64,000 bases of DNA, taken from IMG/VR virus record IMGVR_UViG_2974564184_000001, positions 64,977 to 128,976 of that record. One strand, given 5' to 3'. The translations under genes were made by a program, and so were the position numbers. Shown here in pieces: positions 1,446 through 23,534 of this stretch (positions are counted from its first letter, which is position 1; each line of letters starts with the position of its first letter). The stretch comes from a virus. Taxonomy: Duplodnaviria; Heunggongvirae; Uroviricota; Caudoviricetes. The notes beneath the pieces are model-generated. The model searched no databases. It was not told where the DNA came from and worked only from the letters and a program-made list of their open reading frames with translations.

Positions 1446-1991
1446 ATGGCAAATCAAAACTACAAGATCTTCCCGAACAAGGTAGAACTGTTTAAATTCT
1501 TCGGTCAGTTCAACAAGGACATCAACGTCAGCGTATCTGCACGTCTTCCGCTGAACGGACTGGCAATCGGTTCCAAGATGCAGGCTTTCCGTAGTTATCC
1601 TGAGTTCTTCTCTGCACTGGCAGAGTTGACAGGTCAGGATCTGGACACCAAAGCCTCCACACTGCGTATGGGCAACTATATTGTCTTCTGGAACAAAACC
1701 GAAGACGACAAAGAGCTACCAGGCCCGGTGATCTTCTCTGACGTTCCAACTCAGATCAAAGACAAAGATGGTGAGATCATCGCTGAACAAACCATCGAGA
1801 AACAACCAGAGGACACCAATCCTCAGATTGAAGCTCTCCTTGTGGAAGCAGCGGCGCTGAACAACGAAGAAGACAAAGCTGGCAGCAAGGCCAAGCTGGT
1901 CGAACTGGCAGCAGAGCACAACATCGTACTGAAAGGTAACAAATCATTCAGCACGTTCTTGGCAGAATTCGAAGCTGCACTTAAAGCGTAA
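1446..1991 (+). CDS. Hypothetical protein (181 aa) in head module
   Basis: ORF with GGAG SD, co-oriented with virion genes; no family recognised. Confidence 0.75.
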   Translation: MANQNYKIFPNKVELFKFFGQFNKDINVSVSARLPLNGLAIGSKMQAFRSYPEFFSALAELTGQDLDTKASTLRMGNYIVFWNKTEDDKELPGPVIFSDVPTQIKDKDGEIIAEQTIEKQPEDTNPQIEALLVEAAALNNEEDKAGSKAKLVELAAEHNIVLKGNKSFSTFLAEFEAALKA

Positions 1992-2049
1992 GGCGGCTCA
2001 AATGCCCGGGGCATCGGCCTTGGGGTAATCATAAAAGGAGAAGCAAAGA

Positions 2050-2340
2050 ATGGCAACTTCCGGTGTAGCAGGTCTGATCTACGGACGTACCCTTGTGGAT
2101 GTGGGTACAGGTGAAAAGATTAACCTGAGTGACCTGATTGGTCAAGCGGCTGGCCTTGAGATCGGCACAACAGCCACTACTGCGATGGCAGGTAATAAAG
2201 TACCAACTGCGACCCAACGTGGCGGGGTTCTACTGCAAGCAGCACAGGCAGCATCCACAGCAACAGATGTGGCTGGTGTGGTATCTGACCTCAACGCCTT
2301 GCTGACCAAACTCCGTGCAGCGGGTATCGTGACCGCATAA
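2050..2340 (+). CDS. Short head-fibre-like protein (96 aa)
   Basis: C-terminal AASTATDVAGVVSDLNALLTKLRAAG resembles phage head-fibre trimerisation motifs; N-terminus similar to next gene. Confidence 0.6.
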   Translation: MATSGVAGLIYGRTLVDVGTGEKINLSDLIGQAAGLEIGTTATTAMAGNKVPTATQRGGVLLQAAQAASTATDVAGVVSDLNALLTKLRAAGIVTA

Positions 2341-2342
2341 TC

Positions 2343-2366
2343 AAAGCCCTTCGGGGCTTTTCTTTT
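2343..2366 (+). terminator. Rho-independent terminator
   Basis: AAAGCCC-TTCG-GGGCTTT plus T-run. Confidence 0.85.
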
Positions 2367-2381
2367 CTGTAAGGAACAAAA

Positions 2382-4958
2382 ATGGCAACTACAGGTTCTG
2401 GCGGAGTGGTTTATGCAACAAAGTTGGTCGATTTGAAGACGAAGGTCGTGATTGAAGTCTCACAGCTCGCAGACAATCAGGGTGGTGGGGCCGAAGACCT
2501 CCCAGTTGCGACAGCAGACACCCTTGGTGGTGTGAAGGTAGGCTCTGGTCTTTCTGTCACAGCAGACGGAACGCTTTCGTCATCCGGTGGGTCTAATGTT
2601 GACTTGACACCGTACTCCAAGAAAGCGGACAATCTCTCTGACCTGGCAAGCAAAGCCACTGCACTTTCAAACTTGGGCGGGGCGGTTAAGACAGATATCG
2701 ACGGACTGACAAACTTTGCAGCACTTCGCAGCCGCGAACCAGCCTACGAGGGCGAACGTGTATACATCAAATGTCATACAGCTCCTGCTCTCTCAGTCTA
2801 CCTACCGGAAGGTGGTGGTTGGTTTATCGGCAGAAAAACAAAACAAGCTGACGATGGTGGATACGTCGCCTCGGCGGGTGGAAACTGGCACTGGCAAAGA
2901 GACAAAGATCTGAAAGACCTGTACATCGGGGACTTCGGAGGAGTTGCAGACGGTATCACAGATGCCCAACCTGCATTCTTGGCATACAAAAACTTCCTTT
3001 TTGGAACGTATGCTCGTGCAAAATCCGGTGGTACATCAGCAGGTGCTGGAGGATATTCTCCTAACTTTGCTCTTCGTTTCGGCGCGGGTACTTACTTCAT
3101 CAAACCTGGTGAGTACAACAAGTACGGATCGAAAGTTGCGTCCGGTGCAGCAGATGCTTCCTTCAACCCATCAGGGTACTACGCAGCGGGTGGTGTTCGT
3201 ATTGAGGGTGTCGCTGTGGAACAAGGCAAGATGCTGGCAACACGCATCATCTCTGACAAGAGTGACGCACCAGTATTCCTGATCAACCACCGTCGTGTTT
3301 CCTTCCATAACTTCATCTGGGATGGGCAGCAAACAACAAAGGTAGACCAGTACAACGCGAACACCAACCCGACAGGTACGAACCTGTTGATCGGCGCGAC
3401 CCAAGGTGTGTTCAATGATACAGCGTCCAACAAACAACCATTCCTTAAAAATGAATGCCCTGGTGGTTGCTACGCTCGAATCTCTTGTATCAACGCAGTA
3501 AACACAGGCTCTTACATGTTCTACTTGCTGGATACTTTAGACTCTAAAGTGGAGCAAGTGTTCAGTTCGATTACCGCAGGCCCGGTTATCCAGGTTGGTT
3601 GGTCAGGACAAACAGCCGGGGTATGGGATCACTCAACCTCTCTTGAAATCCGAAACTGTAACTTCGGCACTCCAGTAGCTCCAGCTATTTGGGCACCGCG
3701 TTGCGGCCAGGCTATCATGAACAACTGTTGGTTCGAGCACGGAACCATTCCTTTTGACATCAATAATGGTCAGTGGGATCTGGGAATGATTTGCGTGGAG
3801 GATTGCAGAAAGAACCCATCCTTGTGGTATTCAAAAACCACTTGTGTTACTCTCTCTGTACCAACAGGTAATGACTTTGACAGAAGCTCACCTACCAGCG
3901 GAACATGGGCCAGCTATCCTAAAAACCCGGATGGTTCGGACATCACTGCTTGGACAGGAGGATATGATCAGGGCAGTTGGTTGATGCAGAACCACGGAGC
4001 CTACTTCGAATGCCCTGTGGTCTACCCGTGGGGACGTGGATATCTCCGTGGAAGAAACGACTCAGATAGTGTCCTGTGGGTGAACATCGGGAACTTCCGT
4101 AACCCAACCAACGGTGGTTTCTGGAGAGTGAGAATCCTTGGTGGTTCGTACTACAACACCACTACTGCACAGAACATCCTCTCAGATGGTCTTGGTGGTG
4201 AGGCGACTATTAACATTGGTCGTGGTACAGGCACAACTCCGAAAATCTCTTGGTATTCCGAGGGATCTGGGCCTATTGCAAACGTAACCTCCACTGTATT
4301 CCCTCAGTACCAGCCTCAGACATCGAACGATATCGTCCCGGCAGTATGGATTCCGATCCGCCCTCGCTGTGGTGAGTTCACTGTGTTTGTTGAGGGAACG
4401 GGCCTTACAAGGAAGGAAGCGGGTATTCCGGCAGGATACACAGCCAGCGGATTCAGCCAGACTGCCAACCCGGGGTACACAAGAATCCCAGGGCGCTTTA
4501 GTTTCCACACCGGGCAGGCAGGTTTTGGGGCGAGCGGTGACGTTGCGGCGATCACAAGTCGATCAGCAGCGTCTGGGACAACTCCAGTTGATACATCCAA
4601 ACCACGCCAGTGGCTTCGTGTCAACGTAAACGGGATTGAGTATGCAATGCCTTACTATGCGTACACCCCGGTTATCACAACCCAACCAATTGCTCAAACT
4701 GTAGCTACCGGGGGAACTCTGACATTGACAACAGCAGCGAACGACGCGGCAGCATATCAGTGGCAGAAGTCTACGGACTCAGGCAGCACCTGGACGGATA
4801 TCGCCAACGCTACTGCGGCAACCTACACCAAGGCTTCCGTTGTGATTGGAGATGCAGGTCAATACCGGGCGGTCATTAGAGGTCAACTTGGGGCGGCGGA
4901 TGCAACTGTCACTACAAACCAAGCGACCACGAATGCAGTCGCGGTAACGGTCACTTAA
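2382..4958 (+). CDS. Tailspike-like putative exopolysaccharide depolymerase with C-terminal Ig-like domain (858 aa)
   Basis: Fibre motifs LPVATADTLGGVKVG and KADNLSDLAS; tailspike-head segment (FAALRSREP...DDGG...WQR...DFGGVADGITDAQPAF); beta-helix-like body; I-set-like Ig tail (PVITTQP...YQWQK...DAGQYRAVI). Confidence 0.65.
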   Translation: MATTGSGGVVYATKLVDLKTKVVIEVSQLADNQGGGAEDLPVATADTLGGVKVGSGLSVTADGTLSSSGGSNVDLTPYSKKADNLSDLASKATALSNLGGAVKTDIDGLTNFAALRSREPAYEGERVYIKCHTAPALSVYLPEGGGWFIGRKTKQADDGGYVASAGGNWHWQRDKDLKDLYIGDFGGVADGITDAQPAFLAYKNFLFGTYARAKSGGTSAGAGGYSPNFALRFGAGTYFIKPGEYNKYGSKVASGAADASFNPSGYYAAGGVRIEGVAVEQGKMLATRIISDKSDAPVFLINHRRVSFHNFIWDGQQTTKVDQYNANTNPTGTNLLIGATQGVFNDTASNKQPFLKNECPGGCYARISCINAVNTGSYMFYLLDTLDSKVEQVFSSITAGPVIQVGWSGQTAGVWDHSTSLEIRNCNFGTPVAPAIWAPRCGQAIMNNCWFEHGTIPFDINNGQWDLGMICVEDCRKNPSLWYSKTTCVTLSVPTGNDFDRSSPTSGTWASYPKNPDGSDITAWTGGYDQGSWLMQNHGAYFECPVVYPWGRGYLRGRNDSDSVLWVNIGNFRNPTNGGFWRVRILGGSYYNTTTAQNILSDGLGGEATINIGRGTGTTPKISWYSEGSGPIANVTSTVFPQYQPQTSNDIVPAVWIPIRPRCGEFTVFVEGTGLTRKEAGIPAGYTASGFSQTANPGYTRIPGRFSFHTGQAGFGASGDVAAITSRSAASGTTPVDTSKPRQWLRVNVNGIEYAMPYYAYTPVITTQPIAQTVATGGTLTLTTAANDAAAYQWQKSTDSGSTWTDIANATAATYTKASVVIGDAGQYRAVIRGQLGAADATVTTNQATTNAVAVTVT

Positions 4959-10002: not shown

Positions 10003-12393
10003 ATGGCAGGCAATATCATTGTAACCACTACTGTCAACAAAGTAACGTGGCAGGTAGACAAAACAGCATACGGTAAAGCACTAAAGCAAGTCAAGTCTCT
10101 CAAGAAAGAGTGGGAGAAAGTCGGCTCAGGCGTTACCAAAAGAAACAACCCAGCAGAGAAGATCCTGTCTGCTGCTCAACAGGCTAAATTGGTCACGAAA
10201 CGTCTTGCTCAGACAGAACGTGCAGAACAGGCCAAGAGCACCGCACACGCAATTGCAATGGCAAAGAAGGAAGCCAATGCTCGTGCAGCGATCTCTAAGC
10301 GTGAAAGTGCTCGTCGTAAGCAAGTGGTAGGCAATCTAACCAATAGCCGTACACCCGAAGGTAAAGCAGAATACAATAACCTCCGTGATTGGTACAAGTC
10401 TCTTCAAAAAGAGCATGGCCCAGACAGAACCAACGGAGCACCTCGTAAGCCGATCACAATGAACTCTCCTGCTGGATACACACCATCAGGTCAAAGTCAC
10501 TTCGGTAAGCCAGGTCAAACGTCAGATCCTAACGGAGATATCACGGGTCGTCAAGTCGATGCCATGAACCGTGGTCACCGTCAGATGGAGAAAGAACGTC
10601 AGGCGGAAGAAGCACGTCAGGCCAAGAGCAACAAGAACGTTGAAAAAGAACGTGCGAGAGCTAAGGCAAAACGTGATAAAGATGACCGTGCAGATGAAAA
10701 GGCATGGGCGAGACGTGAAGTCGTTGTAGGCAACGCACAGCGTCGTCTGGAAGCGGCCCTTGGGCCACAGTGGAGAAAGAAGACGAAAGGGTTTGACACC
10801 TTATCCGATTCCCTTAAACTGAACGCCGGGAGTATCTCTCAGTACAACAGCCAGATCGGACAGATGATCCGCCAGGCGAAAGCTGCGGCGGGTGAGAACG
10901 TCAATCTGGGCAATAGTATCAAAGGTCTGCGTAGCAGCCTGATTGGAGCTACTGCTGCCTACACTTCTTTCAGCGCGGCACAGAGTATCCTAAGCAACGG
11001 GCAGTTCTTTGAGAGTATGAACGCAACCATGTTGATGGTTTCCGACACTCAGCAGCAAGCTGGTGAGAAGATGGAGTTCGTTCAGAAACAAGCATATCGT
11101 CTTGGTTTGAGTCTGAAAGTTGCGTCTCAGGGATACACCCAGATGTCTGTCAACGCCAAAGGCGTTATCAGCGATAGCGATACAAACGCCCTGTTCAAAG
11201 GGCTGTCAGAATTCTCCACAGCATCCGGTGCTGACCCAGTAAAATACCAACGTGGTATCACCGCGATTGGTCAGATGTTGGGTAAAGGCCAGATCATGGC
11301 GGAAGAACTGAAAGGTCAGCTTGCAGAAGCACTTCCTGGTTCAATGCAGATCTTCGTTAAGGCGGCGCAGAAATACTTCAAGGACGACAAGATTGGTGTC
11401 CCTGAGTTGCAAGACCTGATGAAGAATGGTAAGCTGTTGGCGAAAGATATCCTTCCAGAGGTTGCGAAAGGTTTTGCTGAGATGGCCCGTAAGAACGGCG
11501 CATTGAATGCACAGCTTAAATCCAACCGTGTGGCACAGGAACGTCTGAGCCAGTCTTGGATGGTCTTCCAGAACGAACTCTTCAAGGGTGGGTTTGGTAA
11601 GGAGATGACACGCCTGTTCAACTCCTTAGCTGACATGCTTAACACAAATGGCCCGGTAGGTAAAGCGCTTGGTGAATTCGCAGGTGGGTTTGTGAAGTCA
11701 ATGCGTTACATCATTGATATCACTTATGACACCTTCTACCTGATCAACGCGATCATTACCAAGTTCATTCAAGATCTCGGATTCAAGAACGTTGAGATGA
11801 GTAAGGTCTGGAACTGGGCAGGAATGATTGTTGGTGCGCTCTTCTTTGTCAGTGCTTTGAAAAAGGTATTTGGCATTCTTACTAAAATTGCTGGACTTCG
11901 TGGTGCGATCACAGCTATCGGTGCTGCTATGGGAATGGGCGCAGGTGGTGACGCCGACGAAGACGGTGATGGGAAGAAGAAAAAGAAGAAGGGCAGTGGA
12001 GGAGGAGGAAAGTTCAAAGGGCTGATGAAGTGGACAGGGATCGGAGCAGCCGCTTGGGGGATTACGGATGCCATCGGAGAGATGACTGGACTTGGTTCAG
12101 TTGATGACTCTATCGATTGGTGGAAGAATGCCTTGGGTGGTGTTGGAGATTCTATTTCCAAAGCAGGTTCCAACCATGAACAAGATCGACTGAACTACCT
12201 CAAAACGAACAGCATCATGCCGACAGGTAACTCCCCAGGCTCTGGAGCCAGCACAACCCCAGAACCAGGTAAGGTACAAGTTGAGGTGACCACTAAACTC
12301 GACGAAGGAAAACTCAAAGACATCATCGACCAACAAATCGAAGTGTCTGCGATGGGCGACTACAACCTACTGGCGGGTTCTTTGCCATACTAA
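10003..12393 (+). CDS. Tape measure protein (796 aa)
   Basis: Helical Ala/Lys-rich; tape-measure core (ITAIGQMLGKGQIMAEELKGQLAEALPG); hydrophobic segments; position after chaperones. Confidence 0.9.
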   Translation: MAGNIIVTTTVNKVTWQVDKTAYGKALKQVKSLKKEWEKVGSGVTKRNNPAEKILSAAQQAKLVTKRLAQTERAEQAKSTAHAIAMAKKEANARAAISKRESARRKQVVGNLTNSRTPEGKAEYNNLRDWYKSLQKEHGPDRTNGAPRKPITMNSPAGYTPSGQSHFGKPGQTSDPNGDITGRQVDAMNRGHRQMEKERQAEEARQAKSNKNVEKERARAKAKRDKDDRADEKAWARREVVVGNAQRRLEAALGPQWRKKTKGFDTLSDSLKLNAGSISQYNSQIGQMIRQAKAAAGENVNLGNSIKGLRSSLIGATAAYTSFSAAQSILSNGQFFESMNATMLMVSDTQQQAGEKMEFVQKQAYRLGLSLKVASQGYTQMSVNAKGVISDSDTNALFKGLSEFSTASGADPVKYQRGITAIGQMLGKGQIMAEELKGQLAEALPGSMQIFVKAAQKYFKDDKIGVPELQDLMKNGKLLAKDILPEVAKGFAEMARKNGALNAQLKSNRVAQERLSQSWMVFQNELFKGGFGKEMTRLFNSLADMLNTNGPVGKALGEFAGGFVKSMRYIIDITYDTFYLINAIITKFIQDLGFKNVEMSKVWNWAGMIVGALFFVSALKKVFGILTKIAGLRGAITAIGAAMGMGAGGDADEDGDGKKKKKKGSGGGGKFKGLMKWTGIGAAAWGITDAIGEMTGLGSVDDSIDWWKNALGGVGDSISKAGSNHEQDRLNYLKTNSIMPTGNSPGSGASTTPEPGKVQVEVTTKLDEGKLKDIIDQQIEVSAMGDYNLLAGSLPY

Positions 12394-15428: not shown

Positions 15429-15962
15429 ATGTCTACATTCTATGGTGACTTCTTGCTTGACCCTGTAACGGGAGACTTAGATGTCTCCCAAGGGTTGCAG
15501 ATTATCGACTCAAACCAGATTAGCTTGCGACAGAGGCTTTGGCTTCGTTTCAATATCTGGCAGGGAGATTGGTACTTTGATACCACGATTGGCTTCCCAT
15601 ACAGATCGTACCTCGGTCAAAAAGTAATGAAAACCATCCTCGATAACAAAATCAAGGAAATCTCACGTCTCGAATCGGATGTGTTGGCGATCAACAACTT
15701 TGAGTCCGTCATGGACAGGGCGGGACGTTCATACGAAGCCTACTTCGAGGTGCTGACACAGGAGCAAGATATTGTTCGTATTGCCTTTGTAGGGTCAGAA
15801 GACTACGCCTACCCAATTCCAGATGATGCAAGCTCTCCAGCTTCTCTTTGTGGCGAGGATGGTTGGGTTTCATGGTCTAACAAGCTATACTACCTGGTCA
15901 ACTTCCGTCTACCTCGCCCTGGTGATTCTACATGGATCAACACTTGGACTGGCAACCCCTAA
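15429..15962 (+). CDS. Baseplate wedge protein (gp25/DUF2634-like)
   Basis: DFLLDPVTGDL...LRQRLWLRF...WYFDTTIGFPY pattern. Confidence 0.75.
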   Translation: MSTFYGDFLLDPVTGDLDVSQGLQIIDSNQISLRQRLWLRFNIWQGDWYFDTTIGFPYRSYLGQKVMKTILDNKIKEISRLESDVLAINNFESVMDRAGRSYEAYFEVLTQEQDIVRIAFVGSEDYAYPIPDDASSPASLCGEDGWVSWSNKLYYLVNFRLPRPGDSTWINTWTGNP

Positions 15963-16058: not shown

Positions 16059-17558
16059 GTGGCCGACCAGAAAACATTCGGGTTAAACGACTACGGTTTC
16101 ACCGTGCCGTCCCTGGACACACTGATTGCAGAAACAAAAGAATCTCTGATCGCCATCTTTGGCGAGACCTTCAACACACAATCCAACTCCATCGTCGATA
16201 AACTGACAACGATCCTGAACGAACGTGAATATCAACTCATCCTTCTGGGACAGGCGATCTACGCTTCTGGGACACTGGCAGGTGCCGAAGGCATTTACCT
16301 TGATGAATTGCTGGGCCGTCGTGGTGTTTACCGCCGTGGTAAAACGAAGAGCACAGGTTCAATTGAGATGGCTGTCAACGCAACCGTCCCTTACAACCTT
16401 ATTTATACTCCAGACTCATTCACCGTTGACAATGGTACGTTCATCCTGACGGGAAACACGACCGTTGCGGGGAGTCTGATTGCACAGCAGATTTTAAACT
16501 CTGATCTGGTTCTTGGTAAATACACGTTCCAAGTCCTGAGTTCTGCTGACAACTCAATGAAGTCAATGAGTGTTACCCTTCGAAACAAGACCCCGGGTTC
16601 AACAGAGCTTAACACGTTCCTTTATTCGATCAAGGACTTTATCGTAACCAACACCACAGATTTGAACGCAGATCTGATTTATGTTGACTCCGCCGCAGGC
16701 GCACTGTACATTGGATACAACTCGACGAAAGAGCTTATCGGGCTTAACAGTCGCATCGACTTCCGTTCTTCTCCTATTGCTGGTACACGTACCTTGCAGT
16801 TCGAAGTTGTGGCAGTAGAAGCGGGTGTTCTCACAAGAGAAGCCAATACAGTGACGCAGATTTCTCCGACACCGAGCGGATTCATCTCTCTGAACAACAT
16901 GACCTCGTTTGCTGATGGTGCGGACGTGGAGACGGACAACGAATACAAAATTCGTGCGATGTCAATCACATCTGAGGCTTCCAAAGCAACACGTCCTGCT
17001 GTAATCTCCGCCCTTCTGGGTGTTGAAGGTGTTCAGAAAGTCAAGATCTTCGCCAACAACACAGATCAGCGCGACCAGTACGGTGTTCCAGCCTACAAAT
17101 TCGAGCCAGTTGTGTATGGTGGTGTAACGGAGCAGATCAGCCAGGCACTGTACAACACAATTGCTTTGTCCAATGGGACATACGGTAACACGTTCTACGA
17201 TATCACCACTGAGGATGATACTGTCGAGCGAATCTACCATAGCAAGGCGTCGTCCACGAGCTACAACGTACTGATCCGTTACCAAGGTAAGGTTCTCTCC
17301 TCAACCGAGCAGGATACTATCCGTCGTGCGATCAAGTTGATGACTGACGGTTTGACAATTGCAGATACCCTTTACAACATCCAGCTAATCGCTGCGGTTG
17401 CCGGGGCGGTATCAGCAGGTCGATTCACTCAGCTTACGGCTGCTGTGAAGAAGGCCAGCGAACCAACGTCCGCTTACACCTCTTCCGACGTAGTGTTGGG
17501 AATGCGTGAAGTGTTTGCTCTGGACACAGCGAACATCTTGTTCCAACAAATCACTTAA
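16059..17558 (+). CDS. Baseplate J-like wedge protein (499 aa, GTG start)
   Basis: AEGIYLDELLGRRGVYR, GADVETDNEYKIR, VEGVQKVKIFANNT motifs; SD GGAGG. Confidence 0.9.
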   Translation: MADQKTFGLNDYGFTVPSLDTLIAETKESLIAIFGETFNTQSNSIVDKLTTILNEREYQLILLGQAIYASGTLAGAEGIYLDELLGRRGVYRRGKTKSTGSIEMAVNATVPYNLIYTPDSFTVDNGTFILTGNTTVAGSLIAQQILNSDLVLGKYTFQVLSSADNSMKSMSVTLRNKTPGSTELNTFLYSIKDFIVTNTTDLNADLIYVDSAAGALYIGYNSTKELIGLNSRIDFRSSPIAGTRTLQFEVVAVEAGVLTREANTVTQISPTPSGFISLNNMTSFADGADVETDNEYKIRAMSITSEASKATRPAVISALLGVEGVQKVKIFANNTDQRDQYGVPAYKFEPVVYGGVTEQISQALYNTIALSNGTYGNTFYDITTEDDTVERIYHSKASSTSYNVLIRYQGKVLSSTEQDTIRRAIKLMTDGLTIADTLYNIQLIAAVAGAVSAGRFTQLTAAVKKASEPTSAYTSSDVVLGMREVFALDTANILFQQIT

Positions 17559-17568
17559 TGAGGGAAGC

Positions 17569-19758
17569 ATGGCAGATACATTGCAAGATGTAAACCACAT
17601 CCATGTGCTGCCTGACTTCGTGCAGGACGGGGTTAATTATCTACCTGGCGATTTCCTTCGCCAGAAAGAAAACCTTGTAAAGTTCTTGGGAACGTACCTT
17701 GAGAGACTTCGCGTAATTGACGAAATGCTTGTCAATCTCTCTGAGGGCCGACTGCTGGCGAATGCCGCTTACAAGAACCTGGACGAGATTGGCAGACAGC
17801 TTGGTGTTGACCGTAACGGTATGAGCGATGACAGTTATCGTGCTTCCATTACGATCCTACTGGCGAGTGCTTCAAAACACGGGACACGCCCGGAAGTTAT
17901 TCAAACTTTACGTCAGTTGTTTGGTGACCAAAACTTCACCACCTGGAAAGGTGACAACTATCGTATCGACATTCACGTAATGTCAACCTGTTTCCGACTG
18001 GAAGATCTCCTTCAAGAGATCAAAGATATGCTGCCCCTTCCAACGCATCTGCGTTTGATTGAATCGTATGGCAGAGCTTTCGGATTCAACGGCGATAAGG
18101 ACACCTTCGGGTTCTCCTCTGTGAATGCAAACAAGACAACGACAACCCAAGGTGGGATTGCTCGTCTGGTGTACACTTCTGATGAAGAGAACACTGGATA
18201 CATCATGACCGTCACAGTCGATGACATCACTGTCAACGCCTCTGAGGTAGCACCTGTAGGTATCGTGATCTCTATCTCTGATGCTGTTCTGACAGAATCA
18301 AGTGATAGTGTGACAATTGCACCACTGTCTGTAGCCTTCGGCACAGCTACCGTTGGGGAACCAACAGCAAGCAAGCTGATGACTGTGAACAACAACACTG
18401 ACTTCACGGTTACGATTGCAACCCTGACCATGCCGACCGGGTACACACTCGCATCTGGCAGTGCTCAAGTGGGAACTGTAATTGCTCCAAGAAAGACAGC
18501 CGATATTGCTGTTAGCTTTAATCCGCAAGAAGTCGGGAACATCTCTGGAAACATGGTTGTTACCACAACAGGACAAGCAAGCACGTTAAGAGTTCTTCTT
18601 TCTGGTGTTGGTAAGGCAGCTCCGATTGTTGGATTGCAGCGCCTGGTGACATCTGGTAACCAGTTCGTGACCACTCAGAGTGCTGAGAATTTCCGAATCA
18701 AATCTGTAAACTGGTTTGGTATGGAAGGTCTGAACTTCACCCCTCACGGAACGTGGGTCGGTGCTCGTTACTGGAAAGACATCATTGACCAGATCAAGAC
18801 ATTCGGATTTAACACGATCCGTATCCCTCTGTCTGGAGAAGTGGTACAGAACAACCCATACCCACCGAATGGTGCTGTGGACTTAGAGGTTAACTCTGAA
18901 TTCGTTGACAAGAGAGCGCTGGAGATCTTGGATCTCATCATTGCTTATTGCAACACTCAAGAAATCTATGTTATCCTTGACCATCACCGTCGTGCTGCGG
19001 GTACAGGTGCAGATGGCTCTCCGGTTGACGGAAGCTACAACTTGACCAAATGGTTGGACACTTGGACGAAACTGGCAACGCGCTATAAATCAGCGGTTAA
19101 CGTTATCGGGGCAGACGTTCACAACGAACCGCATGACCTTGACTGGGCAACGTGGGCAGGCTATGCTGAACAAGCTGGTAATGCTATCCACGCTGTGACC
19201 ACTGATTGGATCATCTTCGTTGAAGGTGTTGGACAGTACGAGAATGTCAGCTACTGGTGGGGCGGTCAGCTTCAAGGTGTTGCAACTCGTCCGGTAACTC
19301 TGACTCAACCGAACCGTGTGGCTTACAGCCCTCACGAATACGGACAGAGCGTTGGAAGTCAGTCTTGGCTGGCATACGACAATCAGACACCTCCGGTGAA
19401 CTGGCCTAACAACTTGTACGGCGTTTGGCAACCAATGTGGGGTTACATCTTCACACAGAATATTGCGCCGCTTTGGGTCGGTGAGTTTGGTGGACACTTC
19501 GGTGTCGATGGTAACGGAAACGTAACTAAGCCTCACGCAACCTATGAGAAGCAATGGCTCAATAATCTCATCAAATATTGGAATGGTGACTTTGACGGCA
19601 ACGGGACAAAAGATCTGGCAGCAGGGAAGAAAGGAATTTCCTACAGCTACTGGAGCTACAACCCGAACAGTGGTGATACAGGTGGTCTTGTAGAAGACGA
19701 CTGGGTAACTCCTCAAACTGTGAAGCTCGATCTGCTCGCTCCTGCATTGTCCGACTGA
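17569..19758 (+). CDS. Baseplate wedge protein (DUF2612/gpI-like) fused to Ig-like domain and GH5 endoglucanase (729 aa)
   Basis: Likely start ATG 17569 (SD GAGG). N-terminal LDEIGRQLGVDR wedge motif; C-terminal GH5 motifs VNWFG, GFNTIRIP, VILDHHR, HNEPH (Glu codon 19126), YSPHEYG, VGEFGG (Glu codon 19483), YWSYNPNSGDTGG. Confidence 0.92.
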   Translation: MADTLQDVNHIHVLPDFVQDGVNYLPGDFLRQKENLVKFLGTYLERLRVIDEMLVNLSEGRLLANAAYKNLDEIGRQLGVDRNGMSDDSYRASITILLASASKHGTRPEVIQTLRQLFGDQNFTTWKGDNYRIDIHVMSTCFRLEDLLQEIKDMLPLPTHLRLIESYGRAFGFNGDKDTFGFSSVNANKTTTTQGGIARLVYTSDEENTGYIMTVTVDDITVNASEVAPVGIVISISDAVLTESSDSVTIAPLSVAFGTATVGEPTASKLMTVNNNTDFTVTIATLTMPTGYTLASGSAQVGTVIAPRKTADIAVSFNPQEVGNISGNMVVTTTGQASTLRVLLSGVGKAAPIVGLQRLVTSGNQFVTTQSAENFRIKSVNWFGMEGLNFTPHGTWVGARYWKDIIDQIKTFGFNTIRIPLSGEVVQNNPYPPNGAVDLEVNSEFVDKRALEILDLIIAYCNTQEIYVILDHHRRAAGTGADGSPVDGSYNLTKWLDTWTKLATRYKSAVNVIGADVHNEPHDLDWATWAGYAEQAGNAIHAVTTDWIIFVEGVGQYENVSYWWGGQLQGVATRPVTLTQPNRVAYSPHEYGQSVGSQSWLAYDNQTPPVNWPNNLYGVWQPMWGYIFTQNIAPLWVGEFGGHFGVDGNGNVTKPHATYEKQWLNNLIKYWNGDFDGNGTKDLAAGKKGISYSYWSYNPNSGDTGGLVEDDWVTPQTVKLDLLAPALSD

Positions 19759-19769
19759 GAGGAGTAACA

Positions 19770-22190
19770 ATGAGACAGGCTACATTTACAACAACCCTCA
19801 ACCAGGCCAGCGAATCGCTGGTCACGGTTGACTATGCCACCCAGGACGGATCTGCGGTGGCACCCGCTAACTATACAGCTAAGTCTGGGACTTTGACGTT
19901 TGCAGCAGGGGAAACCTCTAAAGACATCATCGTCCTTGTGAACGACGACGCGCCTGCGGAGACAGAGACGAACTTCTATGTTCTCTTGACCAATCCGCAG
20001 AACGGCGTCTTAGGGACTTCTCGTGGTACGGCTACAGTACCGGGTTCAGAAGAACCACCGAAGACGAACTATCTGGAACGGTTCAAGACCATTTACAACA
20101 TGGTTCATGATGTCGATAACAAATACTTTGGGCCGCAGACAGGGGCGAATGCTCGCACACTGCCACGTCACATCCCGGGTGTTGATAGTATCATCATCAA
20201 CGAAGCGCCTGACCACGGTGGTGAAACCGTATCAGAAACTGCTTCCTTCTGGGTTGGTCTGGAAGCGTGGAATGGTTACGTAAGCGGACAACTGGGAACC
20301 GCCGATTGGTCAGGTTATAACAACGCCTGGAACCAGATCGATAAGTTCTACGTTCCGTCTGCGACTAACCAGCCGATTGCGACGTATCTACCAGCGAAAC
20401 CAGCGGACTACACCCCAGAGGGTGACTTGCCGAGTGCTTACCCGACACTGGGTGACCCGACAGCAGCCCACGGTACTGACCCGTTAGCAGATGAGTTGGA
20501 ATCAACCTACGGCAACAAGCGCATGTATCTCATGCACTGGATTCTGGACGTTGAAGGCTTGTACAATTTCCGAAATGGCGATGGTACTAAGCAGAACGTG
20601 TATATCAACACGTATGAACGCGGTATGCAGGAATCTTCTTTCGAGACGGTAACGCACCCGGCGTGGAACGACTTTGCTAACGGTGGTTCTATCTACGGAT
20701 ATGACCCATTGTTCACCCAAGGATCTCAGTGGTATCCAGCAGCAGCCAACGATTGGGGTAAGAAGTGGTCATACACTAACGCACCCGATGCAGAAGGCCG
20801 TGCGATCCAGTGGTCATTCTGGGCGCAGAAGTTTGCAACCGAACAAGGCGCAGGTACAGCCATCTCTGCTTCGACTACAAAAGCGAAGAAGATGGGCGAC
20901 TACATGCGTTACAACCTTTTCGATAAATATTTCCGCAAAATTGGTGATAATCAATTAGGTGGGACGGGTTACGAAAGTTGCCATTATCTGGTAAACTGGT
21001 ATGCAGCATGGGGCGGTGAGATTCCGGCAGCAGGAGCTACAGCTTCTTGGTCGTATCGTATCGGTTCCTCTGAGTGTCACCAAGGTTATCAGGCAATCGA
21101 CTCAGCATATTTCATGGCAACAGGTGGTGGTGGATTCAGTCCTCTGTCCCCGAGCGCTTCTGACATTTGGTTAGGCTCTGTCTACCGTCAGATGGAAATG
21201 CTTCGTTGGTTGCAATCAGCAGAAGGCCCGTTAGCAGGTGGTGTGACGAACTCCTGGAACTCTCGTTACGAGACTCCTACCGATGGTCGTCAGAACGCCA
21301 AGTTCTACGGAATGGTTTATACCTATGCTCCAGTATGGCACGATCCACCATCAAACGACTGGGTTGGTTTCCAGACATGGGGTCAAGGCCGTACAGCGGA
21401 TCTGTTCTTGGAAGTGTCTGATAAGGCAACTCCACTGGCAACAACATTGAAAGCCAACCTTGAGGTCATCCTTGATCCTCTGGTTGTGTGGTTCCTGAAC
21501 AACTCTACGTTGTCCTCTGATGGTTCATTCCTGCTCCCGGGAACTCTGTCTTGGACTTCCCCGACGCAAGTTGTTGGTCAGACGGCGACCGCGCCAAACC
21601 ACGAAGGTGTGTATGAATACCTTCCATCCCTTAACTGGGACGGAACAGGTAACCAAGCAGCATTCTGGAATGCGTCCACAGTTCCTAACCCGAACTTGCA
21701 TTGCAGCATTGTTGAGTATGCAACCGACCTCGGTGTTGCAGCGTCCTTGGCTTACATGTTGATCTCTTACGCGAAAGCGAAGCAGAACATGGGTAAATTC
21801 ACCACCAAGATCAAAAGTACAAACCACACCGCAGAAACTGCGTTGACGTTTGCCAAAGAATTGCTGGATCGCATGTGGAACAAATACGTCGATGACGTTG
21901 GCCTCGCGATTGACAGTTCAATGTCAAGCTACAAGCGTCTGTTTGACACGGTGTATGTGCCAGAGATCTTCACAGGTACGATGCCGAACGGCGAGCAGAT
22001 CAAGACGGGCGTTAAGTTCCATGAACTTCGTACCTTCTTGCACGATGACCCTAAATGGGCAGAAGTACAGGCGTATGCGACAGGTGCTACTAACGTGCCA
22101 CCAGTGTTCAAATACCACCGCTTCTGGGCGCAAGCCGAATTCGCGATCAGTCTCGCGGCTCTCCATCGTTACTTTAGCGACGTGATCTGA
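19770..22190 (+). CDS. Calx-beta domain plus glycoside hydrolase family 48 cellulase (806 aa)
   Basis: Calx-beta (VDYATQDGSA...YTAKSGTLTFAAGETSK); GH48 motifs YLERF, EAPDHG-ETVSE, MHWILDV, INTYERG, YTNAPDAEGRAIQ, GGVTNSW, YHRFWAQ; no signal peptide. Confidence 0.92.
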   Translation: MRQATFTTTLNQASESLVTVDYATQDGSAVAPANYTAKSGTLTFAAGETSKDIIVLVNDDAPAETETNFYVLLTNPQNGVLGTSRGTATVPGSEEPPKTNYLERFKTIYNMVHDVDNKYFGPQTGANARTLPRHIPGVDSIIINEAPDHGGETVSETASFWVGLEAWNGYVSGQLGTADWSGYNNAWNQIDKFYVPSATNQPIATYLPAKPADYTPEGDLPSAYPTLGDPTAAHGTDPLADELESTYGNKRMYLMHWILDVEGLYNFRNGDGTKQNVYINTYERGMQESSFETVTHPAWNDFANGGSIYGYDPLFTQGSQWYPAAANDWGKKWSYTNAPDAEGRAIQWSFWAQKFATEQGAGTAISASTTKAKKMGDYMRYNLFDKYFRKIGDNQLGGTGYESCHYLVNWYAAWGGEIPAAGATASWSYRIGSSECHQGYQAIDSAYFMATGGGGFSPLSPSASDIWLGSVYRQMEMLRWLQSAEGPLAGGVTNSWNSRYETPTDGRQNAKFYGMVYTYAPVWHDPPSNDWVGFQTWGQGRTADLFLEVSDKATPLATTLKANLEVILDPLVVWFLNNSTLSSDGSFLLPGTLSWTSPTQVVGQTATAPNHEGVYEYLPSLNWDGTGNQAAFWNASTVPNPNLHCSIVEYATDLGVAASLAYMLISYAKAKQNMGKFTTKIKSTNHTAETALTFAKELLDRMWNKYVDDVGLAIDSSMSSYKRLFDTVYVPEIFTGTMPNGEQIKTGVKFHELRTFLHDDPKWAEVQAYATGATNVPPVFKYHRFWAQAEFAISLAALHRYFSDVI

Positions 22191-22231: not shown

Positions 22232-22585
22232 ATGGCAACGGTTACAGCTACCTTCACCCTTAGCAGGGACAATTTCGCGGAGATTAGTTCTCTGGACTAT
22301 GCGACAAGTGATGGCACCGCGATTGCAGGTGTTGATTATGTGGCAAAGTCAGGACGGATCACCATGAGCGCAGGCACCGTAGAGGTGCAAATCTCAATTG
22401 ATGTAATGACCAAGCCGAAAGGCACCCCGAGCAAGACCTTCTTCCTCGATTTGTCAAACCCATCTAAGTATCGAAAACTCATTACCAAAATCGCCCGGAC
22501 AAGAGCGGTGTGTACGATTTACACCACTGACGCTGGCCCACTCGCTGTCATCAGCATTAGCGATGCAGTAATCACACAAGTATAA
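22232..22585 (+). CDS. Stand-alone out-of-phase Calx-beta protein (117 aa)
   Basis: LDYATSDGTAIAGVDYVAKSGRITM...TFFLDLSNPS; lacks N-terminal strand and ends in VISISDAVITQV. Confidence 0.85.
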   Translation: MATVTATFTLSRDNFAEISSLDYATSDGTAIAGVDYVAKSGRITMSAGTVEVQISIDVMTKPKGTPSKTFFLDLSNPSKYRKLITKIARTRAVCTIYTTDAGPLAVISISDAVITQV

Positions 22586-22595
22586 CGAGGATATC

Positions 22596-23534
22596 ATGGC
22601 ACAACCTGAGATCGAGATCGAAGTATGGGCAGGGTTAGATTATGATCTGCCTAATGCCCTGACAAAAAACAAAATCAGACCTATCTCTGACCTATGGGAT
22701 AAGGGATATGATATGGGCGAGAAGCCTGATGTCCAGGCGTGGAACTACGTGTGGTACATGCTGACTGTGTGGATGAAGTACATGCAGGAAGAGCAGCTTC
22801 CAGGTCTTGATAACCTTTACCTGAAACGCACAAGAAACCTTGAGGAACTGACTGATAAGCCACAGGCTCGTAGTAACTTGGGTGTTTATTCGAAAGATGA
22901 CTCCGACAACCGTTACTTGCAGCTAACGGGTGGCGCTCTGTCAGGTGGATTGAAAATTGCTGGTAACACCGCAGTTGATATCACCTCACAAGGTCTTGCT
23001 ATTCGCTGGAACGAGACCAACGGCTCAGGCGCTACCTTCTTTGTCAACAACCAGGGTGGTGGGACAGGTGGTTTTGTATTCCGTAACGTGAACGCATTAG
23101 GTACTGCGGAAACTGGTCGTGTAACGATCCAGCCGAACGGCTCTCTGGTAACTTCCGCTACAGTTCGTGGTGGAACTCTGGAATCAACTGGTAACGCCAG
23201 TGTAGCAGGAACCACAACAACTGCCAACCTTACGGTGCAGAATAACGCAGCAACAGTTGGTGGACGACATGTAGCGAGAGCAGTGAACGGAAACATCGCA
23301 GACGAGAACGGTAACGTGACAGTGACCATTCCTTCTCCTGGTGTTACTGACGTTCGTCTTGGGTCTCAAGGGAACCAAGGTGCTTCGAATAGCTTCACAG
23401 TTCCTGCTGGATGCCTGGTTACAGGTCTTAACGGTTTCAAAGTAACCGGGCCTGACTTCCAACTTTATGGTCTATTCTACCGTCCTCTCCAGAAATTCCT
23501 CAACGGGGTCTGGGTGACCGTTTCAGTAATCTAA
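22596..23534 (+). CDS. Tail fibre protein (312 aa)
   Basis: Baseplate-attachment N-terminus (WDKGYDMGEKP...WNY); C-terminal tip DVRLG...VPAGCLVTG...YRPLQKFLNGVW; followed by fibre assembly gene. Confidence 0.8.
   Translation: MAQPEIEIEVWAGLDYDLPNALTKNKIRPISDLWDKGYDMGEKPDVQAWNYVWYMLTVWMKYMQEEQLPGLDNLYLKRTRNLEELTDKPQARSNLGVYSKDDSDNRYLQLTGGALSGGLKIAGNTAVDITSQGLAIRWNETNGSGATFFVNNQGGGTGGFVFRNVNALGTAETGRVTIQPNGSLVTSATVRGGTLESTGNASVAGTTTTANLTVQNNAATVGGRHVARAVNGNIADENGNVTVTIPSPGVTDVRLGSQGNQGASNSFTVPAGCLVTGLNGFKVTGPDFQLYGLFYRPLQKFLNGVWVTVSVI

Follow-up and report, generated by a model that had tools for sequence, protein, structure and literature searches.

A gene joining a predicted baseplate wedge subunit to a GH5 endoglucanase-like domain in an Erwinia-type contractile-tailed phage

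Domain composition of the P0002 gene product

The DNA analysed here (the window) is a stretch of 64,000 nucleotides (nt), positions 64,977 to 128,976 of the IMG/VR record IMGVR_UViG_2974564184_000001. The record comprises 148,842 bp with direct terminal repeats and represents an Erwinia-type contractile-tailed phage. The window holds a myovirus tail and baseplate module in which the tape measure gene (10003..12393) is followed by genes for a Dit-like protein, hub and spike, a gp25-like sheath-initiator protein (15429..15962) and the 499-amino acid (aa) Baseplate_J protein, or wedge 2 (16059..17558, + strand; Pfam PF04865, phrog_6). Directly 3′ of wedge 2, and 5′ of the short tail fibre gene, lies the gene studied here, P0002 (17569..19758, + strand). 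It starts with ATG at 17569, just behind a GAGGGA sequence, and stops with TGA at 19756-19758. The encoded protein of 729 aa can be divided into a wedge 1 part, a linker, an immunoglobulin (Ig)-like domain and a domain of glycoside hydrolase family 5 (GH5).

The wedge 1 core (residues 1-209; 17569..18195, + strand) was assigned to the gp7/gpI/triplex class of single-copy wedge subunits. In a phmmer search of the PDB, residues 4-208 aligned with residues 6-209 of the 214-aa 'Wedge 1 protein' of phage phiTE (9mjn_dh; E-value 1.8e-65), which is present as six chains in entry 9mjn. A 209-aa chain of phage phi92 (21vq_D) matched the N-terminus at 2e-18, and the PHROG profile phrog_4056, annotated as 'baseplate protein', at 2.8e-88, with residues 1-218 on profile positions 1-217 of 219. 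In related phages wedge 1 is a free-standing protein of 207-225 aa without an enzyme. Among these proteins, gp045 of Escherichia phage 4MG (210 aa) is 70% and gp098 of Escherichia phage Av-05 (225 aa) 61% identical to the P0002 N-terminus. The phiTE (9mjn/9cuy), 4MG and Av-05 proteins, at about 50-70% identity, hold the same place after Baseplate_J and are homologous over the whole free-standing protein, as is the more distant phi92 protein. Homology to wedge 1 reaches approximately residue 226; the same holds for Av-05, the wedge 1 of which ends in ...ILIYVDNISVDATE.

Since a full-length alignment for AlphaFold2 (AF2) put N-terminal homologues on the GH5 region, P0002 was folded in two overlapping parts, residues 1-250 and 205-729. 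The first model had a predicted local distance difference test (pLDDT) score of 81 and was ordered over residues 10-208. A Foldseek search with it gave ten PDB matches with E <= 0.001, every one a baseplate chain of a contractile system (phiTE, Bas63, XM1, Pam3, phi812, the diffocin triplex and phiCD508), with pyocin R2 and Mu at weaker E-values. Sequence and predicted fold thus indicate that residues 1 to ~227 correspond to a complete wedge 1, the single-copy wedge subunit of rV5-like myophages.

The Ig-like beta-sandwich (residues 248-349; 18310..18615, + strand), of TMEM131_like_N/ASH type, was recognized by Pfam as TMEM131_like_N at residues 248-333 with an E-value of 1.3e-7, above the cut-off, and its strands had AF2 pLDDT values above 90. 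The Pfam profiles ASH and Cep192_D4 stayed below their cut-offs on this domain. Behind it, residues 359-729 (18643..19755, + strand) form a predicted (beta/alpha)8 endo-beta-1,4-glucanase domain. The Pfam family PF00150 matched residues 378-701 at 8.4e-45 (153.8 bits against a gathering score of 23.5), and the closest PDB matches were CelE2 (8fc0, 3.9e-82) and Acidothermus E1 (1ece, 1.7e-71). The model of residues 205-729 had a pLDDT of 91.4 and Foldseek target template-modelling scores (TMt) of 0.94 to 8fc0 and 0.91 to 1ece. In the HMMER alignment the predicted acid/base, the NEP glutamate E520 (19126-19128, + strand), and the predicted nucleophile, the GEFG glutamate E639 (19483-19485, + strand), stand opposite E162 and E282 of E1, and R418, N519, H589 and Y591 opposite R62, N161, H238 and Y240. 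The nearest solved GH5 relatives, CelE2, E1, EGPh and EngXCA, are all endo-beta-1,4-glucanases. Alignment and model therefore point to a complete E1-like GH5 domain with intact catalytic residues, which we take to be a member of CAZy subfamily GH5_1.

A model's reading of this DNA from its letters and open reading frames (ORFs), here called the sequence-only reading, had proposed a wedge partner of baseplate J followed by an ASH-like Ig domain and a complete E1-like GH5 with catalytic glutamates at about 520 and 639. The AF2 and Foldseek parsing agrees with this domain order and its coordinates. The N-terminus matches the solved single-copy phiTE wedge 1 in full and adjoins the Baseplate_J gene, shorter wedge orthologues of the kind that it had suggested for comparison exist (4MG, Av-05 and phiTE), and the glutamates are exactly E520 and E639. 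An Ig-like domain is present as well, with TMEM131_like_N as the profile above its cut-off and ASH itself below.

Conservation, rarity and origin of the fusion

Three diverged lineages, represented by the window, the SNUABM phages and the metagenome contig L007, have an uninterrupted 729-codon gene of this kind, free of insertions and deletions. They share 79-85% aa identity. The window protein is 85.5% identical to those of pEp_SNUABM_01 and of pEa_SNUABM_55/56, and at the nucleotide level L007 is just 80% identical to the pEp_SNUABM_01 group. The SNUABM orthologues have an identical 729-aa architecture and the same neighbours, and do not differ in kind from P0002. The ratio of nonsynonymous to synonymous substitution rates (dN/dS) was 0.03-0.25 in all five segments of the gene, junction included, wherever an estimate of dS was possible; dS itself was mostly above 1. 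These results show that the fusion is real and under purifying selection. A Logan contig of the probable source run also spans the P0002 gene and is not independent evidence.

To assess how frequent such fusions are, we searched two large protein collections. A word-seeded search of 5.8 billion clustered proteins found only three clusters with a wedge 1 N-terminus among proteins of 400-1276 aa, those of the three lineages above. An exhaustive HMMER search of 1.84 billion representatives retrieved 320 wedge 1 homologues, most of them 180-245 aa long. Among the best 150 of these 320, a C-terminal extension behind the wedge domain was found in 20, in which Pfam detected no catalytic domain and only Ig-like, weak carbohydrate-binding module and domain-of-unknown-function (DUF) matches. 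By comparison, the Ig-GH5 module is commonly encoded in contigs of phage size (942 proteins at E <= 1e-20), usually preceded by a Gp77 fibre-tail adaptor domain. The use of a whole wedge subunit as cellulase anchor thus appears to be rare and was found in one phage clade only. The enzyme module itself is already known as the phage cellulase of the gp095 type, widespread in podophages, and only its anchoring is unusual. The Henunavirus orthologue gp075 of pEp_SNUABM_01 (YP_009851598.1) is annotated as 'baseplate protein' or 'putative glycoside hydrolase'. The fusion was not described in the literature that we searched, which did not cover Jo et al. 2024 (Curr Microbiol 81:204) on Henunavirus infection strategies.

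The closest known counterpart of the enzyme part comes from Erwinia podophage vB_EamP-S6 (S6), whose gp095 is 59% identical to the GH5 domain. The gene behind P0002 looks intact and encodes an 806-aa protein with a Calx-beta domain and a GH48 domain (19770..22190, + strand; Pfam GH48 E-value 1.1e-195), and this protein is 64% identical to S6 gp094 over residues 2-805. The two proteins are colinear from residue 2, which indicates that the GH48 protein carries no lineage-specific virion anchor of its own. In both the window phage and S6 the GH5 gene comes first and the GH48 gene follows after about 10 nt. The two phages also share the host genus and one ISISD-type motif before the last Ig domain. 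The two GH5 proteins differ in their anchors: S6 is an N4-like podovirus and its gp095 begins with Ig-like domains, whereas the anchor in P0002 is a myovirus wedge subunit in full. For S6 it is known that gp095 breaks down carboxymethylcellulose and that Erwinia without cellulose cannot be infected (PMC9544554, PMC11512310). Cellulose acts as the first receptor of this phage (PMC9544554, commentary on Knecht et al. 2022).

Several relatives show how the same site looks without the fusion. The whole insert is missing from 4MG, in which the short tail fibre gene directly follows wedge 1. The 225-aa wedge 1 of Av-05 (L004 3501-6254 = L029) ends in a strand-like extension, ILIYVDNISVDATE. Its TAG stop is followed after 12 nt by an in-frame 687-aa protein composed of a Calx-beta domain without strand A, NCTSP_N and an NCTSP TIM barrel, which appears to be an unfused counterpart in this position. 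A third arrangement was seen in a P2-like IMG/VR contig of high GC content (L009 1812-9884), which encodes gpW, gpJ, Tail_P2_I (190 aa), a separate 579-aa GH5 protein with the strand-A motifs LSIGDATL and LSVGDASL, a 199-aa protein, a Calx-beta-GH48 protein and a P2 gpH-like fibre. As this GH5 gene directly follows the gpI wedge gene, the cassette appears to have reached the same baseplate position, unfused, in another myovirus lineage.

From about residue 228 onwards, the P0002 sequence matches the linker between Ig domains in podophage cellulases. PEp14-like podophages carry this Ig-GH5 module behind the Gp77 adaptor domain. In Erwinia phage PEp14 itself (L006 4722-11572), the GH5 protein 'cel' has this podophage fibre-tail adaptor at its N-terminus and is followed by an exopolysaccharide (EPS) depolymerase and a 'tail protein', each starting with a Calx-beta domain that lacks strand A. 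The fusion is likely to have originated by recombination between an Av-05-like wedge 1 with a short C-terminal strand and a podophage cassette of the type strand-Ig-GH5 followed by Calx-beta-GH48.

Strand-like motifs and truncated Calx-beta domains

Residues 205-247, between the wedge and Ig-like parts, were disordered in both AF2 models, which are independent of each other. The stretch of residues ~212-247, where the sequence-only reading had described donor-like strands, is real, conserved and beta-prone. Two motifs in this stretch resemble strand A of Calx-beta domains. The first, IMTVTVDDITVNASE (residues 212-226; 18202..18246, + strand), has its counterpart in the extension at the C-terminus of Av-05 wedge 1. 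The second is IVISISDAVLTESSDS (residues 232-247; 18262..18309, + strand).

We derived a strand-A consensus, P-x-L-S-I-x-D-V-S-V-T-E-G-N-S-G, from the segment preceding the conserved core in 626 complete bacterial Calx-beta repeats. The repeats came from a search with residues 1-100 of the GH48 protein, whose results were dominated by bacterial multi-Calx-beta proteins and do not bear on the spread of phage GH48. With the 16-position position-specific scoring matrix (PSSM) built from them, residues 232-247 were the best match in the whole phage genome. This best score, 16.0, was reached twice in 20 shuffled proteomes and is thus only moderately rare. A second PSSM, built from 400 of the 626 repeats, gave residues 232-247 a score of 17.4 (expected rate at scores of at least 14: below 0.006 per 1000 aa) and residues 212-226 a score of 12.1. 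An 18-position strand-A hidden Markov model (HMM) found no matches at >=5 bits, being too short. The second motif is kept in P0003 and P0004 and in about 40% of phage Ig-GH5 proteins.

The genome encodes only two Calx-beta proteins, and both genes lie directly downstream of P0002. One is the GH48 protein, and the other is a protein of 117 aa (22232..22585, + strand; Pfam Calx-beta E-value 2e-10). In a custom HMM of 122 positions their Calx-beta domains begin at positions 35 and 33, respectively, where strand A would end. The 117-aa protein closes with a strand-like tail, VISISDAVITQV, that is nearly identical to P0002 residues 233-241 and scores 13.7 with the second PSSM; the second motif is common to this C-terminus and to the inter-Ig linker of podophage GH5 cellulases. 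We regard the 117-aa protein as a candidate adaptor. Its orthologue in L007 (129 aa) carries two such strand tails. A 122-aa protein encoded 3′ of a podophage GH48 gene (L011 12939-13307) also ends in a strand-A-like tail, GPVISVSNAVIVEA, and no Calx-beta domain was detectable in it.

The truncation is not confined to this genome. All Calx-beta domains found in phages (27 proteins from 17 loci, including the PEp14 EPS depolymerase and the Av-05 protein) are N-terminal and lack strand A, with the match starting at model position 28-37 of 122 and at about residues 2-7 of the protein when alternative upstream starts are counted. One to three Calx-beta genes were located just downstream in all nine phage GH5 loci with readable neighbours. 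Among 17 loci of the Vequintavirinae type, a C-terminal strand on wedge 1 and a downstream Calx-beta gene were both present in two (Henunavirus and Av-05) and both absent from the remaining 15. An ISISD regular expression was tried as a separator of GH5 proteins with and without Calx-beta neighbours and was rejected, as all five motif-negative loci also have Calx-beta genes. The PSSM detected a donor motif in at least one locus missed by this expression, L017, and weakly in L016.

From these sequences we consider it about an even call that the linker motifs complete the Calx-beta domains of the GH48 and 117-aa proteins in trans. In that case the processive GH48 would be tethered close beside the endoglucanase. 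A wider and more tentative proposal, to which we give a little under an even chance, is that the wedge-GH5 protein would be, besides an enzyme, the anchor of a strand-complemented assembly. Its two motifs would act as donors only, the 117-aa protein as an extender with socket and strand, and GH48 as a cap with a socket only. Together they would form a tethered endo/exo 'mini-cellulosome' on each of the six wedges, and the split Calx-beta domain would be a general, exchangeable mount by which podophages and two myophage lineages attach depolymerases and fibres.

Strands that augment separately encoded modules are known from the donor-strand complementation of chaperone-usher pili. In the 'chain-like fibres' of rope-and-dimer type of the podophages GP4, VP1 and A1002, an extended polypeptide supplies strands to the beta-sheets of modules encoded by separate genes (PMC13730344). 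These rope fibres provide a structural precedent for strand-A docking, although fold and proteins differ. In the system proposed here, the socket would be a Calx-beta domain without strand A and the cargo would be enzymes.

Some observations weigh against docking. The association across the 17 Vequintavirinae-type loci amounts to only about two independent gains. The PSSM finds no donor motif in the podophage loci L013, L015, L018 and L019 despite their Calx-beta genes. In Av-05, reading through the stop (TAG as glutamine) moves the Calx-beta match from profile position 29 to 23 and leaves the score unchanged.

The competing explanation accepts a virion-borne fusion, takes the linker motifs as a flexible spacer inherited from podophage inter-Ig linkers, and has the GH48 and 117-aa proteins attach elsewhere or remain soluble. 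It is consistent with phage GH5 proteins that have Calx-beta neighbours and no detectable donor motif, and with the two shuffled proteomes that equalled the genome-best score. It would not account for the absence of strand A from all 27 N-terminal phage Calx-beta domains, for the recurrence of the motif as the C-terminal tail of a Calx-beta protein, for a GH48 protein that is colinear from residue 2 in podophage and myophage and has no lineage-specific anchor of its own, or for the co-occurrence of the wedge 1 strand extension with a downstream Calx-beta gene. We regard a mere spacer as plausible but somewhat doubtful.

Proposed function and alternative explanations

Taken together, we consider it likely that P0002 is a structural wedge 1-GH5 baseplate protein that provides each virion with six cellulases cleaving host cellulose. 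The wedge 1 part would join two copies of Baseplate_J, the product of the gene just upstream, in the conserved wedge heterotrimer. Past wedge 1, a flexible stretch of ~35 residues would lead to the Ig-like spacer and then to GH5. In phiTE, one wedge 1 is present in each of six wedge protomers, and the N-terminus of the short tail fibre binds wedge 1 (PMC11972413). Because of this stoichiometry, six monomeric GH5 domains would be expected at the baseplate rim, one exposed copy per wedge, with the short tail fibres docking next to them on this subunit. In phi92, a single-copy wedge protein holds the endosialidase fibre and fibre III (PMC13450770). There the depolymerase fibre is held non-covalently on a wedge 1 homologue, whereas here the enzyme is a covalent part of it. 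The 209-aa phi92 chain (21vq_D) is labelled Phi92_gp146 in the PDB, and the text of PMC13450770 gives gp145 as the single-copy and gp146 as the two-copy protein, so that the labels appear swapped or offset. Because of this conflict, we took the stoichiometry from phiTE only.

The activity of S6 gp095 and the cellulose dependence of S6 suggest removal of the host cellulose matrix as the likely role. The GH5 domains would cut bcs-type cellulose around Erwinia so that baseplate and fibres reach the outer membrane, and this local removal would precede irreversible adsorption, as in S6. Endo-beta-1,4-glucanase activity is known for the S6 orthologue gp095 only, and host cellulose is thus the probable substrate of P0002.

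Phage depolymerases are normally separate trimeric spikes that are plugged into the tail via small adaptor domains. The virion-borne tailspike depolymerases P22 gp9, the phi92 endosialidase gp143 and DpoL1 of Erwinia phage L1 are trimeric beta-helix or beta-propeller proteins with a small, exchangeable N-terminal anchor. P0002 would share with them the role of a virion-borne enzyme that removes surface polysaccharide before irreversible adsorption. It differs in being a predicted monomeric TIM-barrel enzyme that is covalently continuous with a core wedge subunit. A classical trimeric tailspike depolymerase is ruled out by the GH5 TIM barrel as catalytic domain and the whole wedge subunit as anchor, in line with the suggestion of a display site other than the usual tailspike.

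Three points count against the proposed function. Copy number and exposure were deduced from homology to phiTE, and the substrate from S6 and from the behaviour of the GH5 and GH48 families. In addition, the Pfam family DUF2612, to which the sequence-only reading had likened the N-terminus, stayed below its gathering score in P0002 (E-value 0.0042; 17.5 bits against a cut-off of 23.5). Among 20 remote homologues retrieved with the P0002 N-terminus, 15 matched DUF2612 at E < 0.001, and by transitivity this N-terminus can be placed as a divergent member of the family.

Other explanations of the long gene fare less well. That it is an assembly or sequencing artefact joining two genes is refuted by the same 729-codon ORF in pEp_SNUABM_01, pEa_SNUABM_55/56 and an unrelated metagenome contig, so that the assembly error against which the sequence-only reading had cautioned is excluded and the chance of any such artefact is negligible. 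The fusion could also be a precursor or delivery form from which GH5, with or without the Ig-like domain, is cleaved in the linker during or after assembly, so that mature virions keep only a wedge 1 of normal size and the cellulase acts as a soluble enzyme set free at lysis. The predicted disorder of residues 205-247 would make them accessible to proteases, and free-standing wedge 1 proteins of 207-225 aa are the rule in relatives. However, no protease or cleavage motif was identified, and the linker is under purifying selection with its strand motifs conserved. Podophages also fuse the same module to virion-anchoring domains, and a soluble enzyme would gain nothing from fusion to an essential structural gene. 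Cleavage is therefore unlikely.

We think it very unlikely that GH5 acts on another glucan, such as plant cell-wall cellulose, hemicellulose or another beta-glucan, or is chiefly a receptor module that binds carbohydrate. In favour of these readings, the GH5 family is polyspecific, its substrate cannot be read from sequence alone, and the hosts of these phages live in plant tissue. On the other side, the catalytic machinery is intact and the closest solved relatives are endo-beta-1,4-glucanases, GH48 is a typical partner in the attack on cellulose, and the S6 orthologue degrades carboxymethylcellulose in a phage that needs bacterial cellulose. Host cellulose hydrolysis by a virion-borne wedge 1-GH5 protein remains the reading that we prefer.

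If so, a monomeric carbohydrate-active enzyme would be built into an essential wedge subunit of fixed copy number, and the C-terminus of a gp7/gpI-class wedge protein would tolerate a payload of ~55 kDa. This would define a six-copy display site on contractile tails that could be useful for engineering phages or tailocins. The relationship to S6 suggests that a cassette of two cellulase genes has passed between a podovirus and a myovirus of the same plant pathogens. It also marks Henunavirus phages as likely to be cellulose-dependent, like S6, which is relevant to the biocontrol of fire blight, as such dependence would affect cocktail design and the resistance routes to be expected via bcs mutations. 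Strand docking, if true, would account for the way in which many phage enzymes that begin with a Calx-beta domain are attached to virions, and is the more novel part of the finding.

The short tail fibre orthologue of the 4MG gp044 class (22596..23534, + strand; phrog_4465) is kept 3′ of the inserted cassette. It is 39% identical to 4MG gp044, with a conserved N-terminus. Two relatives carry further genes on the other side of wedge 2. In L007, a metagenomic Henunavirus-like relative, an extra 876-aa tailspike (Tail_spike_N and a weak Peptidase_S74 match; not present in the window) lies between the sheath-initiator and wedge 2 genes (1679-4309). In 4MG (L002 3250-5388), a 'colanic acid degradation' gene and two tail-protein genes are inserted 5′ of wedge 2, which indicates that Vequintavirinae differ in the point of the baseplate module at which depolymerase genes insert.

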